32,000 nt of DNA. Origin: Caldimicrobium thiodismutans. GTDB lineage: Bacteria > Desulfobacterota > Thermodesulfobacteria > Thermodesulfobacteriales > Thermodesulfobacteriaceae. The stretch lies in contig NZ_AP014945.1 of assembly GCF_001548275.1 (NCBI RefSeq), forward strand, positions 1,050,001 to 1,082,000. The letters run 5' to 3'. The position numbers and the translations under genes were made by a program. Every line of letters begins with the position of its first letter. Position 1 is the stretch's first letter. Positions 12,661-20,447 of this stretch are shown one piece after another. The notes under the pieces were generated by a model that was not told the DNA's origin, searched no databases, and saw nothing but the letters and a program-made list of their open reading frames with translations.

Positions 12661-13968
12661 ATGCCTGATACCCTTAAAAATCAAGCTAAAAAGGGAGTAG
12701 TTACTGAGGAGATTAGGCTCTGTGCTGAAGCAGAAGGCCTCTCACCTGAGACCTTAGTTAATCAAATAGCTAAAGGGGAAGTTGTTCTTTGTAAGAACAA
12801 AAAAGCCAAGCTTTCAAAGCCCTGTGCTATTGGTAAAGGCTTAAAAACCAAGGTAAATGTGAATATTGGCACATCCAAAGACCGTCCTTATATTGAAGAG
12901 GAACTTAAAAAACTTGAAATTGCCCTTAGATACGGCACAGATGCAGTTATGGATCTTTCAACAGGTGGCCCTATTGATGAAATAAGAAAGGCTATTCGGG
13001 AGGCCTGTCCTGTTCCCCTTGGAACAGTTCCCATCTATCAAGCTGCCCTTGAGGCTGTTGAAAAACATAAAAAATCCATAGTGGAAATGACGGTTTCCGA
13101 AATCTTTGAGGTTATTCAAAAACAAGCAGAAGATGGCATTGACTTTATGACTGTGCACTGCGGAATTACTAAACATACCTTAGAGAGGCTTAAAAACAAG
13201 GAAAGAATCCTTGGTGTGGTTTCAAGGGGGGGCTCCTTTATAGTGGAATGGATGGTTTACAATAACAGGGAAAATCCTCTTTATGAGTATTTTGATGAGC
13301 TCCTTGATATAGCCTCAGCCTATGATATTACCCTTTCCCTTGGAGATGGAATCAGACCTGGATGTATAGCAGATGCAACCGATGGCCCCCAGATTCAAGA
13401 ATTAATTATTCTTGGAGAATTAACCTTGAGGGCCTGGGAAAGAGGGGTTCAAGTGATGATTGAAGGCCCTGGGCATGTTCCCTTAGATCAGATTACTGCT
13501 AATGTGAAACTTCAAAAAAGGCTCTGCCACAATGCTCCCTTTTATGTGCTCGGGCCTTTACCCACAGATATTGCCCCAGGCTATGATCACATAGTGGGTG
13601 CCATAGGAGGAGCCATTGCTGCAAGTGCCGGGGCTGATTTTCTTTGCTACTTAACTCCTGCTGAGCACTTGAGACTTCCCACCCTTGAAGATGTTAAAGA
13701 AGGCCTTATTGCCTCAAAAATTGCTGCTCATGTGGCAGATCTTGTGAAGGGAGTCAAAGGGGCCTGGGAATGGGATCTTGAAATGGCTAAAGCAAGAGCC
13801 CAACTTGACTGGGAACGCCAGATTGAACTTTCCATTGACCCAGAAAAAGCCCGTAAATATCGCCTTGAAGGTGGTATTTCAAGAAGTAAAGCCTGCTCTA
13901 TGTGCGGAGAATACTGCGCTATAAAAATCTATGAACATGCCTATAAGTTTTTAAAAGGCGCCCATTGA
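12661..13968 (+). CDS. thiC: Phosphomethylpyrimidine synthase ThiC (radical SAM)
   Basis: Conserved ThiC blocks (VNVNIGTS, DAVMDLSTGG, MTVHCG, MIEGPGHVP) and the C-terminal cluster motif CSMCGEYC. Start moved to ATG 12661, 9 nt after AAGGAG (12646-12651). The track start is TTG 12652. Confidence 0.92.
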   Translation: MPDTLKNQAKKGVVTEEIRLCAEAEGLSPETLVNQIAKGEVVLCKNKKAKLSKPCAIGKGLKTKVNVNIGTSKDRPYIEEELKKLEIALRYGTDAVMDLSTGGPIDEIRKAIREACPVPLGTVPIYQAALEAVEKHKKSIVEMTVSEIFEVIQKQAEDGIDFMTVHCGITKHTLERLKNKERILGVVSRGGSFIVEWMVYNNRENPLYEYFDELLDIASAYDITLSLGDGIRPGCIADATDGPQIQELIILGELTLRAWERGVQVMIEGPGHVPLDQITANVKLQKRLCHNAPFYVLGPLPTDIAPGYDHIVGAIGGAIAASAGADFLCYLTPAEHLRLPTLEDVKEGLIASKIAAHVADLVKGVKGAWEWDLEMAKARAQLDWERQIELSIDPEKARKYRLEGGISRSKACSMCGEYCAIKIYEHAYKFLKGAH

Positions 13969-14373
13969 ATGAGCCCTTAACGCAGTTAAGACCTCTTTAA
14001 AAATTTGATAATAAATATCTTTTTTTATTTCTTTGTAATATTTTTTGGCTGTTTCTTCATCATAAATCTGAACCAGAAATTTTCTTATAAGAAGCATTTC
14101 ATAGAGGTTTTCTTCATAATCCTGAGAAATAAGACCTTCCTTTAATAAAGATTCAAAACAACTTCTTGGGGAATAACATTCAATCCCGCGAAGGCACAAA
14201 AATTCCTTTATTGCCTTCCACATGGCTTCAAAGGTGTATTCAAATCTCTTGGTTAAAATCTCAATTTGAAAGTCCTCACTGAAAACTTCCTCAAATAGAG
14301 GATTTCCTAAGATTTCTTCAAATTTTCTAAATGCTCTCTCAAAGCGCTCAAGGCTCCTTCTGAACTTTTCCAT
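13951..14373 (-). CDS. Nucleotidyltransferase substrate-binding protein, HI0074 family (HEPN-superfamily four-helix bundle)
   Basis: N-terminus MEKFRRSLERFERAFRKFEEIL and the block IRKFLVQIYDEETA align by eye to the family motif R-N-x-x-x-H-x-Y-D-E. It sits immediately downstream of the minimal nucleotidyltransferase. Confidence 0.7.
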   Translation of the reverse strand: MEKFRRSLERFERAFRKFEEILGNPLFEEVFSEDFQIEILTKRFEYTFEAMWKAIKEFLCLRGIECYSPRSCFESLLKEGLISQDYEENLYEMLLIRKFLVQIYDEETAKKYYKEIKKDIYYQIFKEVLTALRAHSMGAF

Positions 14374-14681
14374 ATATATCCCTCTGCAATAATTTTTTCT
14401 ATAAATTCGGGATTTTTTATTCTTTTGAGATCAACCACTTCTATGGTTCTCAAAAGAGGAAGCCCCTCAAGGGCTTTCTCAATCTCTGCCAGAATTTTTG
14501 CTGAAAGTTTTTCTGAAGAAAATATGGCTACATCAATATCTGATGTCCTTCCAAATCCTCCCTCTATAAGGGACCCAAAAAAGATAATAAGACTCTTCTC
14601 AGGCAATAACCTCTCTAGGCTCGCCCCAACAAGACCTAAAATTCTCTCTTTCTCCTCTTTTACCCTCTCTTTTTCCTTCAT
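14307..14681 (-). CDS. Minimal nucleotidyltransferase (MNT, HI0073-like)
   Basis: The motif GSLIEGGFGRTSDIDVAIF fits G-S-x(9-10)-D-x-D of the pol-beta-type NTase fold. Confidence 0.8.
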   Translation of the reverse strand: MKEKERVKEEKERILGLVGASLERLLPEKSLIIFFGSLIEGGFGRTSDIDVAIFSSEKLSAKILAEIEKALEGLPLLRTIEVVDLKRIKNPEFIEKIIAEGYIWKSSEGALSALREHLENLKKS

Positions 14682-17512: not shown

Positions 17513-17552
17513 GGTTGTGTATGCGTCCAGGTCTTTTGAGACTTAAATAGTA

Positions 17553-17574
17553 GGGGTTTAAAATTTTAAACCCC
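17553..17574. promoter_or_regulatory. Perfect 22-bp palindrome GGGGTTTAAAATTTTAAACCCC in the divergent control region
   Basis: The sequence equals its own reverse complement and is followed on the + strand by TTGAATTTTTTT. It could be an operator or an insulating terminator. Confidence 0.5.
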
Positions 17575-17810
17575 TTGAATTTTTTTGTGGGTCTGTTGTA
17601 GCACAGACATTCTTGTCTGTGTTTCTTTCATACATTGGAGTGTAATTTACCTCCACAGGCAAGATTGCCTGTGTTACTTTTACAGACTTGTAAAGCCTCT
17701 CTTGTATAGATATCTAATTCCTCTTTTACCACCCTTCCTTTTTTCTTGTAAGGATCTGAACTTATGCAGGGTTGTAAATCTTCAAAGGACTAAGACTTAA
17801 AAATTCCCTC

Positions 17811-17838
17811 TTGACTTTTTCATTTTTATAAGTAATCT
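17811..17838 (+). promoter_or_regulatory. Putative promoter of the selenopeptide/rSAM operon (TTGACT-N16-TAATCT)
   Basis: Same geometry as the two tRNA promoters in this window. It would give a 5' UTR of about 45 nt before ATG 17888. Confidence 0.4.
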
Positions 17839-17887
17839 CAATTAGTAAAGCATTTTTAATTATTATAATTTATAAGGAGGTGGGCTT

Positions 17888-18064
17888 ATGAAGGAAAGTT
17901 TAAGAAAGAGTTTGGAGAGTATTAAGCTTGAAGGACTTTTAAAAGAGATTGCCTTTTCTGAAGCCCCTATGGCAACCCTTTTCCCAAAAGGGACCTCTTC
18001 TTGAGGCTCAAGCTGAGGCGATAAGCCCAAAAGGAGCGGAGTTTCCGCTCTGAAAAATAACTAA
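17888..18064 (+). CDS. Putative selenocysteine-containing RiPP precursor 1 (58 codons, in-frame TGA at 18002-18004 and 18014-18016)
   Basis: Strong Shine-Dalgarno sequence AAGGAGGTG 7 nt before the ATG. Read-through product MKESLRKSLESIKLEGLLKEIAFSEAPMATLFPKGTSS-U-GSS-U-GDKPKRSGVSALKNN ends at TAA 18062-18064. If TGA is a stop, the product is 38 aa (17888-18004). Confidence 0.6.
18034..18050 (+). promoter_or_regulatory. Candidate bacterial SECIS-like hairpin (GAGCGGA-GUU-UCCGCUC)
   Basis: Perfect 7-bp stem with apical loop GUU. The loop starts 24 nt after the second UGA and 36 nt after the first, which falls inside my recollection of the usual bacterial UGA-to-apical-loop distance. Confidence 0.4.
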
Positions 18065-18088
18065 ATCTTTTTTAAGGAGGTGAGGGCG

Positions 18089-18331
18089 ATGAATAAAGAA
18101 AACCTTAAATCAACTCTAAAAGGTGTGAGTATTTCTGCCCTTTTAACCCTGGCCTTGAGTATTGGAACTCCTTCTGTTAGCCTTTCTCAACAGGGTAGCT
18201 CTGGTTGAGGCGGAAGTCCTAAGAAGGGCGGTGGATCTGCCCCTGCAAAGGAACAGCCTGCTAAAAATGCAACTGATAACGAAACTAAAAAGGACACTAA
18301 AAAGCCCAAGGGTAAAAGTGGCTGAGGTTAA
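18089..18331 (+). CDS. Putative selenocysteine-containing RiPP precursor 2 (80 codons, in-frame TGA at 18206-18208 and 18323-18325)
   Basis: Shine-Dalgarno sequence AAGGAGGTG 8 nt before the ATG. Read-through product MNKENLKSTLKGVSISALLTLALSIGTPSVSLSQQGSSG-U-GGSPKKGGGSAPAKEQPAKNATDNETKKDTKKPKGKSG-U-G ends at TAA 18329-18331. If TGA is a stop, the product is 39 aa. Confidence 0.6.
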
Positions 18332-18347
18332 TCTTTAAAAGGCCTCT

Positions 18348-19664
18348 TTGAGGTCTTATCTTAAATTTATGCTCTATTTCCAGCTAAACCCCTCCCTTGA
18401 AATTTCAAGGGAGGGGAATGAATTTATATTGTCTTTTTTCCAAAATGCAACAAAAATTTTTATAAAAGCAGATCCTTGGGATTTACTTGTAATTAAAATT
18501 CTTATAGAAGAACTTGATCCTTTAGAATTATCAAAAAAAGAAAATCTCACATTATCACTTATACTTCAAGCTTTTCACTCAGGCTTTGAAAAGGGTTATC
18601 TCATTAGAGAGGAAAGTAAAATCGTAAGAAAAGAGCCCCCTTTTCAGAGAGCCTTTTTTCCTGACGATACCTTTAGGGTTGCTGAGGTTTTTACTTTACA
18701 GTGGCATCTAACCAATAGATGTGATCTTCATTGCAAACACTGTTATGATCGATCAAGTGTTTCGGAATTATCTTTAGAAGATAATTTCAGAATCCTTGAG
18801 GATTTCTTTAGATTCTGTTCAGATATGAAAGTTCATGGACAGATAAGTTTTTCCGGAGGAAATCCTTTTATGTATCCCCATTTCTTTGAGCTTTACAGGT
18901 CTGCTTCTGAGATGGGATTTAGCCTTGCAATTCTTGGAAACCCTGTCTCAGAAACCCTTCTTGAGAGGCTCTGTAATATAGAAACCCCTGTATATTATCA
19001 GGTAAGTCTTGAGGGCTTAGAAAAGACTAATGATGAGATTCGGGGAAAAGGTCATTTTCAAAGAACTATTAAATTTTTAAAAATACTTAAAGATTTTGAA
19101 GTTCCCTCGGGAGTTATGATGACTGTTCACGAAAAAAATCTTGATGAGCTCATTCCCCTTGCTAAATATCTTGAGGGAAGGGTTGAGGTTTTTTCTTTTA
19201 ATAGGCTTTCTCTTTTCGGTGAAGGTAAAAAACTATCTCCTTCTGAAAGGGAAAAATTTTTTAAAGTTCTTGAAGAATACCTTGAGCTTTCTTTTGAATT
19301 GCCCTATCTTTCCCTTAAAGATAATTTTTTTAATTTTTTTCTTTATAAGAAAGGGTTGCCCTTTTGTGGAGGGTGTACAGGTTTTGGATGTGGGGCAGCT
19401 TTCAATTTTCTCACTCTTTTACCCAATGGAGAGGTCCATGCCTGCAGAAAATTCCCATCTCCCTTGGGAAATATTTTAAATAAATCTCTCAGTGAGATCT
19501 ATCATTCTAAAGAAGCTGAACTTTATAGGCTTGGGCCTGAGGCCTGTAACAATTGTATCCTTTATGGAGTTTGTAGAGGTTGTCTTGCGGTGATTTCAAG
19601 CTTTGGTTTGGATCTTACTAAAGATAAAGATCCTTACTGTCCTGGAAAACTTATCTCCCCTTGA
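18348..19664 (+). CDS. Radical SAM/SPASM-domain peptide maturase (SbtM-like by context)
   Basis: CX3CX2C motif NRCDLHCKHCY. The C-terminal region has 9 Cys (CGGCTGFGC...HAC...ACNNCILYGVCRGC...YCP), typical of SPASM auxiliary clusters. About 100 aa precede the core and could be a peptide-recognition domain. The start is uncertain, either TTG 18348 or ATG 18369. Confidence 0.85.
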   Translation: MRSYLKFMLYFQLNPSLEISREGNEFILSFFQNATKIFIKADPWDLLVIKILIEELDPLELSKKENLTLSLILQAFHSGFEKGYLIREESKIVRKEPPFQRAFFPDDTFRVAEVFTLQWHLTNRCDLHCKHCYDRSSVSELSLEDNFRILEDFFRFCSDMKVHGQISFSGGNPFMYPHFFELYRSASEMGFSLAILGNPVSETLLERLCNIETPVYYQVSLEGLEKTNDEIRGKGHFQRTIKFLKILKDFEVPSGVMMTVHEKNLDELIPLAKYLEGRVEVFSFNRLSLFGEGKKLSPSEREKFFKVLEEYLELSFELPYLSLKDNFFNFFLYKKGLPFCGGCTGFGCGAAFNFLTLLPNGEVHACRKFPSPLGNILNKSLSEIYHSKEAELYRLGPEACNNCILYGVCRGCLAVISSFGLDLTKDKDPYCPGKLISP

Positions 19665-19688
19665 CAATATTTTAAATTCGTTTAATTT
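19661..19688 (+). promoter_or_regulatory. Putative promoter of tRNA-Gln (TTGACA-N16-TAATTT), with its -35 box overlapping the rSAM stop codon
   Basis: TTGACA 19661-19666 contains the TGA stop at 19662-19664. TAATTT at 19683-19688 lies 13 nt before the tRNA. Confidence 0.45.
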
Positions 19689-19701
19689 ATCTGATTAAGC
19701 T

Positions 19702-19773
19702 TGGGGGATCGTCTAATAGGCAGGACAGTGGACTCTGGATCCACGAGTGGAGGTTCGAGTCCTCCTCCCCCAG
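19702..19773 (+). tRNA. tRNA-Gln (anticodon CTG)
   Basis: Acceptor TGGGGGA/TCCCCCA (U1-A72, typical of tRNA-Gln), anticodon stem GTGGA/TCCAC with loop CT-CTG-GA, T-arm GGAGG-TTCGAGT-CCTCC. Confidence 0.9.
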
Positions 19774-19775
19774 CT

Positions 19776-20447
19776 TTAAGTTCTAATCATAGATAATCGG
19801 TGCGCTTCCCTTAAAGGTTCGGGCATTCTAAATTTAACTGCGGTTTTTAAAACCCATTCAACTGCCTCCTCTGGAGTAATAAGATTTCCAGGAGAAACAA
19901 AAAGAGGGCTTACTCCAGTCCTTGTTCTCACTACATAACCTGAAAGTTCTCCTGTAAGATAAACTGGAAGCTTTGACCCTCTTTCTTTTGGAAGTTCTCC
20001 CTCAAATTTAAGAAGAGGTTTTTTAGCACAACCGATAGTTGGAATCTCAAGTTCCACGCCAAGATGAACTGCAAGCCCTGCCTTTCTTGGATGAGCTATC
20101 CCCTGTCCATCAACAAGAATTAGATCCGGTCTATTCTTAAGCCTTTGAAAGACCTTAAGAAGAAGGGGAGCCTCCCTAAAGGATAAGTAACCCGGAATAT
20201 ATGGAAAGGTTATCTTCTCTATACTATCTACAGTTTCAATTATTTTAAACTCAGGATACCTCATCACTACTATGGCTCCTTTTGCCAGCCCATTTTCAAA
20301 ATACCCTACATCACATCCAGCTATTAATCCAGGTTCCCTTTCCAGAGGAAAAAGCTTCACTTTCTTTGAAAGCTTAATTTGAAACTCTTTTAACTCCTCA
20401 ACCATCATAGCTTCAAAACTTTTTTGCCTAAGTTCTTCTTCTTTCAA
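19776..20447 (-). CDS. nfi: Endonuclease V (deoxyinosine 3' endonuclease)
   Basis: Conserved blocks AGCDVGY, LVDGQGIAHPRKAGLAVHLGV and PTIGCAK. TTG start preceded by GGGGGAG. Confidence 0.88.
   Translation of the reverse strand: MKEEELRQKSFEAMMVEELKEFQIKLSKKVKLFPLEREPGLIAGCDVGYFENGLAKGAIVVMRYPEFKIIETVDSIEKITFPYIPGYLSFREAPLLLKVFQRLKNRPDLILVDGQGIAHPRKAGLAVHLGVELEIPTIGCAKKPLLKFEGELPKERGSKLPVYLTGELSGYVVRTRTGVSPLFVSPGNLITPEEAVEWVLKTAVKFRMPEPLREAHRLSMIRT

Follow-up and report, generated by a model that had tools for sequence, protein, structure and literature searches.

The closest described relative of the locus analysed here is the SbtA/SbtM ("selenobiotic") system, among the few cases in which selenocysteine (Sec, U) occurs in a ribosomal peptide that is modified further. 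It is represented by the curated models TIGR04081 for the precursor SbtA and TIGR04082 for the maturase SbtM, and the Geobacter lovleyi pair is the published example (Lewis et al. 2021, via PMC9204691). In PMC9204691, SbtM of G. lovleyi is described as abstracting a β-hydrogen and carrying out two oxidations dependent on S-adenosylmethionine (SAM), which yield a thio- or seleno-oxazole keeping a free thiol or selenol; the article also gives SbtA "at least two SeCys" and reports that the enzyme takes Cys as well as Sec in vitro. The bufferins and captophorins are ribosomally synthesised and post-translationally modified peptides (RiPPs) that bind copper through 5-thiooxazoles and are made by O2-dependent MNIO enzymes with DUF2063 partners, on motifs of the EGKCG type (PMC11626156, PMC12668002, PMC13056109). 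Here we compare with these systems a region of a 32-kb stretch of Caldimicrobium thiodismutans DNA (the window), of which positions 17600-19800 were read directly and open reading frames (ORFs) translated from both ATGs. We consider it very probable that the region is a three-gene sbt operon, with two Sec-peptide precursor genes, ORF-A and ORF-B (sbtA), followed by the maturase gene sbtM. Its features are:

17806..17846, + strand, upstream block CCCTTGACTTTT...TTTTTATAAGTA... conserved between the window and loci L001 and L002, probably the region of the sbt promoter
17873..17882, + strand, Shine-Dalgarno sequence TAAGGAGGTG of ORF-A, by direct reading
17888..18064, + strand, ORF-A, a 58-codon putative signal-less SbtA paralogue, predicted Sec codons 18002-18004 and 18014-18016
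18033..18051, + strand, hairpin GGAGCGGA-GUU-UCCGCUCU resembling a Sec insertion sequence (SECIS), 19 nucleotides (nt) after the second ORF-A TGA and 31 nt after the first
18073..18082, + strand, Shine-Dalgarno sequence TAAGGAGGTG of ORF-B, by direct reading
18089..18331, + strand, ORF-B (sbtA), an 80-codon precursor gene matching TIGR04081, predicted Sec codons 18206-18208 (GSSGUGG) and 18323-18325 (GKSGUG-stop)
18226..18242, + strand, SECIS-like hairpin GGGCGG-UGGAU-CUGCCC, 20 nt after the TGA at 18206, included in the covariation count given below
18339..18357, + strand, hairpin AAGGCCUC-UUU-GAGGUCUU, untranslated, between ORF-B and sbtM, 16 nt from the TGA at 18323 and 12 nt from the ATG of sbtM
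18369..19664, + strand, sbtM, encoding a short-form (431 residues) radical SAM/SPASM thio(seleno)oxazole maturase (TIGR04082, 558.8 bits)
subregions of sbtM, + strand: RRE-like domain as modelled at about 18378-18608, CX3CX2C at 18720-18743, SPASM cysteines at 19374-19640

The sequence-only reading of this stretch had noticed two short genes, each with two in-frame TGAs, ahead of a radical SAM/SPASM gene, had taken them for Sec peptides with an SbtM-type maturase and had proposed the SbtA/SbtM family. Direct translation confirms the observation, and the interpretation is supported, both curated models agreeing with the proposed family. ORF-A reads from ATG 17888 as MKESLRKSLESIKLEGLLKEIAFSEAPMATLFPKGTSS-TGA-GSS-TGA-GDKPKRSGVSALKNN-TAA (TGAs at 18002 and 18014, TAA at 18062-18064) and its C-terminal part, with TGA as U, is ...GTSSUGSSUGDKPKRSGVSALKNN. 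ORF-B reads from ATG 18089 as MNKENLKSTLKGVSISALLTLALSIGTPSVSLSQQGSSG-TGA-GGSPKKGGGSAPAKEQPAKNATDNETKKDTKKPKGKSG-TGA-G-TAA (TGAs at 18206 and 18323, TAA at 18329-18331), where the first TGA is followed by GGSPKK...KGKSG, the second TGA and a Gly; 37 nt separate its end from the sbtM ATG. The four TGAs stand in [S/G]-[S/G]-U-G contexts and both frames stay open to a TAA, as claimed. The near-identical strong ribosome-binding sites are also there, TAAGGAGGTG lying before both ATGs with its GGAGG core 7 and 8 nt ahead. All Caldimicrobium relatives examined have this pair of genes too, with identically placed TGAs and frames that are open and conserved, so the locus is more than a chance arrangement.

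The highest score of the maturase among radical SAM models is on TIGR04082, the model of the peptide-modifying SbtM (558.8 bits, E 1.2e-167, cut-off 350), and not on that of an unrelated radical SAM subfamily; the runner-up family, TIGR04340, gives 177 bits for a cut-off of 400. A maturase of sactipeptides, ranthipeptides or streptide is rejected, the models AlbA (61 vs 850), PapB (54 vs 340), SkfB (50 vs 300) and StsB (54 vs 625) all scoring far below their cut-offs. A 431-residue protein on record, named SbtM of C. thiodismutans and assigned to Pfam PF04055 and PF13186, is 100% identical. Because of this identity the start is most likely ATG 18369, and not TTG 18348 as previously taken. In the 431-residue numbering the CX3CX2C motif is formed by C118, C122 and C125, and of the nine C-terminal Cys of SPASM type, a count that stands as first made, eight are invariant across 74 family members.

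The SbtM proteins of Caldimicrobium and Thermosulfurimonas are short: compared with the usual form of ~525 residues, the alignment shows that they lack ~95 residues at the N-terminus and an insert of ~26 residues. The AlphaFold2 (AF2) model of the short SbtM has a pLDDT of 93.4 and contains a β-β-β-α-α-α domain at residues 4-80 whose fold resembles an RRE-like peptide-recognition domain, consistent with the earlier proposal that the N-terminal ~100 residues recognise a leader. Pfam gives nothing significant for the N-terminal regions of either short or long SbtM. Residues 1-190 of the long form (e.g. P0037) are modelled (pLDDT 92.3) as five helices followed by an RRE, and their only significant PDB fold matches are to chain A of the TglHI holoenzyme (8hci, 8hi7; E 1e-4, TM 0.6 over 208 columns, the next match at E 0.19); a profile search of the same N-terminus against PDB sequences found nothing. 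TglI, the partner of the MNIO enzyme TglH, has a helical N-terminal domain of novel fold and a C-terminal RRE (PMC10880893), and by this fold description chain A would be TglI. If the match holds, long-form SbtM would be a fusion of a radical SAM catalyst with a recognition module of the MNIO-partner type, and the window SbtM would have lost the helical half of that module. The models thus raise the possibility that SbtM and MNIO systems share a peptide-recognition module. No MNIO (DUF692) or DUF2063 gene is present in the window, and none is conserved beside sbtM in the 80 loci surveyed below.

Of the 26 ordinary genes of the window, 7 have TGA as their stop, among them thiC, pstA, pstC and the maturase gene; a reassigned genetic code is therefore excluded, as already argued from thiC, the AAA-ATPase gene and the maturase gene. 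For comparison we took the orthologous loci of two Thermosulfurimonas species and of three Caldimicrobium lineages besides the present one. In L001, L002, L004, L005, L007 and L008 the frame runs on past every TGA until a TAA or TAG, with the peptide conserved and no decay after any TGA. Substitutions in ORF-B 3' of its first TGA are distributed over the three codon positions as 6/3/13, 5/3/21 and 4/3/13, a pattern like that upstream, and coding constraint up to the TAA is shown for the frames after the TGAs, as judged from such comparisons. Cys codons take the place of TGA at homologous positions, as in QSGCSGUG of Thermosulfurimonas dismutans vs QSGUSGUG of T. marina and in TSUSGKTSUSG (L076) vs TSCSGKTSCSG (L038). 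Reading the TGAs of ORF-A and ORF-B as Sec is well supported by this comparative evidence. Public records hold the two products only as hypothetical proteins of 38 and 39 residues, cut at the first TGA, exactly what would be expected if all four TGAs were ordinary stops and the conservation downstream reflected RNA structure only. We attach next to no credence to this explanation, since third codon positions are enriched in substitutions downstream, protein-level motifs are conserved across genera, Sec and Cys alternate at homologous sites, the NCBI annotation in sister genera passes the internal UGAs, and the other two frames are either not conserved or contain stops.

Another possibility is that the UGAs are read as Cys, or as a selenium-dependent mixture of Cys and Sec, by a tRNA-Cys that resembles tRNA-Sec and has a UCA anticodon (selC*). 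Such genes are reported in some Thermodesulfobacteria and in related anaerobes, and opal suppression with Cys has been shown, with a deltaproteobacterial example (Mukai et al., PMC5389517). Cys is also accepted by SbtM in vitro, according to PMC9204691, and all-Cys SbtA variants are encoded beside bona fide sbtM genes in L022, L029, L054, L067, L079 and L083, those of L022, L054, L079 and L083 being the ones that speak for Cys decoding. However, every genome carrying selC* also has a full selA/B/C/D set (PMC5389517), so that Sec insertion would still be available, and the retention of UGA with a hairpin, rather than of the cheap codons UGC or UGU, argues that selenium matters. We regard this reading as unlikely. 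GKGSCG repeats in some of the all-Cys SbtA closely resemble the EGKCG repeats of captophorins, which are made by MNIO enzymes (PMC12668002).

Each UGA, or close pair of UGAs, has a conserved hairpin 16-31 nt downstream. The hairpin at 18033..18051 (z -2.25), which shows a compensatory G-C to A-U change in L002, apparently serves both TGAs of ORF-A; one hairpin for two UGAs 9-15 nt apart is found also in L005, L007 and L008. Over 11 homologous sequences of the hairpin after the first TGA cluster, 89.8% of the cells are paired and five of the eight pairs have changed on both sides, a covariation score reached in none of 500 shuffles. Family-wide, the 45 nt that follow 206 UGA sites fold better than those that follow 40 Cys-codon sites (mean z -1.66 vs -0.47, p 4e-9), which supports the reading of the TGAs as Sec.

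The last UGA of ORF-B deserves separate consideration. In all six orthologous loci a hairpin starts 13-16 nt after the terminal TGA, its sequence differing between loci. The one of the window, at 18339..18357, could act as SECIS for the C-terminal Sec, and possibly also as an attenuator of read-through into sbtM. Alternatively, the UGA at 18323 could be a real stop, and the hairpin would then be a terminator or attenuator reducing the expression of sbtM. The window hairpin is indeed followed by a T-rich stretch, UUAUCUUAAAUUU, and its loop contains no G, a base often present in the loops of bacterial SECIS elements. The Thermosulfurimonas sbtA calls on record (L004:3680-3961, L005:3719-3976) also read through the internal UGAs and take the last one as the end, thereby missing the conserved C-terminal Sec-Gly. 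This alternative is nevertheless improbable: in all six loci exactly one codon separates the last UGA from a stop, always one for Gly but varying synonymously (GGT, GGC, GGA); the GKSGUG obtained by read-through repeats the internal motif; and the precursors of other phyla also end in U-[S/G/N]-stop. Moreover, the hairpin after the last UGA of Thermosulfurimonas has no T-run, and a terminator scan makes no call on the hairpin of the window.

ORF-B matches TIGR04081 over residues 1-28. Its codons 1-33 resemble a signal peptide of the general secretory pathway with a predicted cleavage between SLS and QQG; the leader ends in this site of signal-peptidase-I type and has no lipobox. N-x-T sequons are conserved in the mature SbtA of Thermodesulfobacteria (18245-18300 in the window; L004, L005, L007), examples being KNATDNETKK in the window and ENATKNATENATENATE in T. 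marina, and resemble N-glycosylation sites.

ORF-A aligns to the first 54 residues of the Thermodesulfobacteria SbtA (hhalign, 97.8% probability, E 1.2e-12), in accordance with the earlier view that the N-termini of the two peptides are paralogous, and its assignment as a truncated SbtA paralogue without hydrophobic signal core is supported by this alignment. It retains the K-x-x-L-K...L-L segment, the first Sec motif and the hairpin-encoding PK(K/R)xGxxA stretch. In place of the hydrophobic core it has charged residues, and it is without the long tail, so that the peptide probably remains cytoplasmic. The ORF-A orthologues of L001, L002, L007 and L008 keep both TGAs and the frame; those of L007 and L008 represent an intermediate form whose N-terminus still resembles a degenerate signal. 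The +1 frame of ORF-A, open in the window and in L001 and present among public gene calls as a 54-residue product (P0136), was rejected since it meets a stop in L002. In a further public contig the gene call P0132 renders both UGAs of the ORF-A homologue as Trp, which suggests that the gene caller picked an alternative code table.

The missing core and tail would also be compatible with ORF-A not being a substrate at all, that is, with a decaying sbtA duplicate or a regulatory upstream ORF whose translation or Sec read-through controls the operon. ORF-A fails to match TIGR04081, its N-terminal half changes fast (17-20 non-synonymous vs 8-9 synonymous codon changes), one public contig carries the frameshifted 54-residue version P0136, and a search of 5.8 billion proteins returns eight clusters of this type, all Caldimicrobium-like. 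On the other hand, ORF-A has a strong Shine-Dalgarno sequence, the same as that of sbtA; its UGAs, frame and hairpin, with the compensatory change, are kept in loci where SbtM is only 59-84% identical; and the core ...SSUGSSUGDKPKRSGVSA is almost invariant across the three closest lineages. We consider decay or regulation improbable and read ORF-A as a second precursor.

Several points weigh against the reading of the region as an sbt operon with four Sec codons. The match of the maturase to TIGR04082 spans profile positions 103-516 of 516, the first ~100 being missing. The precursor model is barely satisfied by ORF-B, with 32.1 bits for a cut-off of 30.5 and hence a margin of just 1.6 bits, and not at all by ORF-A or its four orthologues, which give no TIGR04081 match even at E <=10. 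Signal-peptide cleavage and export of ORF-B are judged by eye from the predicted leader. NCBIfam annotation of all large ORFs finds none of selA, selB, selC and selD within the 32-kb window. Individual hairpins are only modestly more stable than their shuffles (z -1.7 to -2.25), and Rfam, searched with 17850-18420 at gathering thresholds and then at E <=10, returns no SECIS family, only chance matches.

Species-representative genomes scanned for SbtM relatives yielded at least 579 candidate stretches, a distribution far wider than the range quoted in PMC9204691, and 80 loci were kept. A leader-profile search of six-frame translations, with TGA read through, recovered 80 precursors from loci other than the window. 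The SbtA gene adjoins sbtM in nearly all of the 80 loci. The number of Sec per precursor is 0 in 7, 1 in 5, 2 in 22, 3 in 40, 4 in 5 and 5 in 1, within a motif [G/S/T][G/S/A]-U-[S/G/T/N] whose counts include SGUG (46), SGUS (42) and SSUS (23). A lipobox follows the hydrophobic segment in 44 of the 80 precursors, and tandem or paired precursors occur in L031, L057, L065, L072 and L080. By these counts, neither two Sec per peptide nor an export-like leader nor a second precursor is out of the ordinary in this family. The arrangement had been thought undescribed; this does not stand, multiple Sec, export leaders and occasional tandems being the family norm in the survey and at least two Sec per SbtA being quoted in PMC9204691. 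In the Delta 4 endosymbiont of Olavius algarvensis (L073:4287 onward) the lipobox Cys position is itself a TGA (FTLSAU), where its relatives L044, L053 and L075 have FTLSGC or FTLSSC; it is either Sec as the lipid-attachment residue or a sequencing error.

Clustering of ORFs over 84 loci revealed no conserved gene beside sbtM other than sbtA, only sbtM itself and antisense artefacts; the sbtAM pair is therefore a self-contained two-gene cassette without own transporter or protease. This fits export through the general secretory or the lipoprotein pathway. No metal genes accompany the cassette. The emrA-emrB genes are divergent from the sbt operon in the window, and the EmrAB pump was rejected as dedicated exporter since it is adjacent only in the closest relatives, L001, L002 and L006, and absent from the sbt loci of L007, L008, L004 and L005. 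Upstream of ORF-A, the block at 17806..17846 is kept in the window, L001 and L002, whereas the remaining spacer is not conserved; it is likely, from this conservation, the promoter region of the operon, and a simple sigma-70 scan makes no call there. The spacer between emrA and ORF-A also holds an insertion of ~250 bp (17527-17777), absent from those of L001 and L002, with a 38-nt palindrome at 17545-17582, three copies of a 24-nt direct repeat and a related pair of 20-nt palindromes, CACAGACATTCTTGTCTGTG at 17602 and CACAGGCAAGATTGCCTGTG at 17654; this insertion could represent a small element, either mobile or regulatory. Between thiC and emrB lies a toxin-antitoxin pair of HEPN/MNT type on the - strand (13951-14681), composed of an MntA-like nucleotidyltransferase and an HI0074-family protein, both under the curated cut-offs. 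On the other side, a tRNA-Gln(CTG), not a tRNA-Sec, is encoded at 19702-19774 on the strand of sbtM, 37 nt after its stop. A scan of the window for long TGA-interrupted frames, as sign of further selenoprotein genes, gave only spurious ones.

By analogy with the published work on the G. lovleyi homologue, Sec would be inserted at the UGAs by SelB and Sec-tRNA(Sec), and SbtM would bind the conserved N-terminal segment K-x-x-L-K...L-L of the peptides. The enzyme would then abstract the β-hydrogen of each Sec or Cys and, through two SAM-dependent oxidations, the residue would be cyclised with the preceding carbonyl to a 5-seleno(thio)oxazole. We infer this conversion of the Cys or Sec of the G-C/U-G motif for the present SbtM from what is known only for the G. 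lovleyi enzyme. SbtA, the product of ORF-B, is predicted to be exported afterwards by the general secretory pathway. ORF-A, in which recognition segment and first Sec motif appear to be preserved, would if true put selenooxazole chemistry in the cytoplasm too. That the precursors are mostly predicted lipoproteins or secreted peptides reduces the number of hypotheses on their function. Our best guess, by analogy with bufferins and captophorins, is a role of SbtA in soft-metal binding in the cell envelope of anaerobes. It is conceivable, although we find it rather doubtful as a whole, that SbtA are non-antibiotic exported or lipid-anchored seleno-oxazole metallophores, the O2-independent counterpart of bufferins and captophorins, and that Caldimicrobium has a pared-down maturase with a second, non-exported precursor.

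The likeness to bufferins and captophorins, which is functional only, comprises a heterocycle of 5-thiooxazole type on Cys in small-residue motifs (EGKCG vs GSGUG), precursors with a secretory signal or lipoprotein leader and no dedicated transporter, the export of SbtA being predicted, and a 305-nm chromophore common to the SbtM-modified peptide (PMC12668002). The catalyst differs, an O2-independent radical SAM enzyme here, as does the use of selenium in place of sulfur; bufferins and captophorins bind copper, while metal binding by SbtA is suggested by analogy. In its predicted structure, SbtM shares the three-domain architecture RRE, radical SAM and SPASM with SkfB (6efn), SuiB (5v1q/s/t) and CteB (5wgg/5why), which are its best Foldseek matches (408-474 aligned columns, E 4e-16 to 1e-14) and also its best PDB sequence matches. 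These enzymes, unlike SbtM, make thioether or carbon-carbon cross-links, and are 16-19% identical to the SbtM of the window. The SPASM radical SAM enzyme anSME (4k36), ranked 11 by Foldseek, oxidises Cys via β-hydrogen abstraction and is presented in PMC9204691 as mechanistic analogue of the first SbtM step; it differs by having no RRE domain, sulfatase substrates and a formylglycine product.

The locus was correctly read; it belongs to the already described SbtA/SbtM system and is not new in kind. It shares with it the enzyme family, the precursor leader, the motif of G-U-G type, the multiple Sec per precursor and the precursor-then-maturase order. It differs by the short form of the maturase, by a leader with a signal-peptidase-I type site where 44 of the 80 surveyed precursors have a lipobox, by the extra precursor without hydrophobic core, and by the thermophilic Thermodesulfobacteria host, outside the "Geobacter and Desulfobacteria" named in PMC9204691. 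Its local peculiarities are the short maturase, the signal-less paralogue confined to Caldimicrobium and the public calls that truncate both peptides, an annotation gap in which both end at the first UGA and the sister genera miss the C-terminal Sec-Gly. Although its contribution is small in principle, the locus is of use as a specimen of the system, with a minimal thermophilic maturase of 431 residues that is confidently modelled and two different short putative substrates side by side, one predicted to carry an export signal and the other not.

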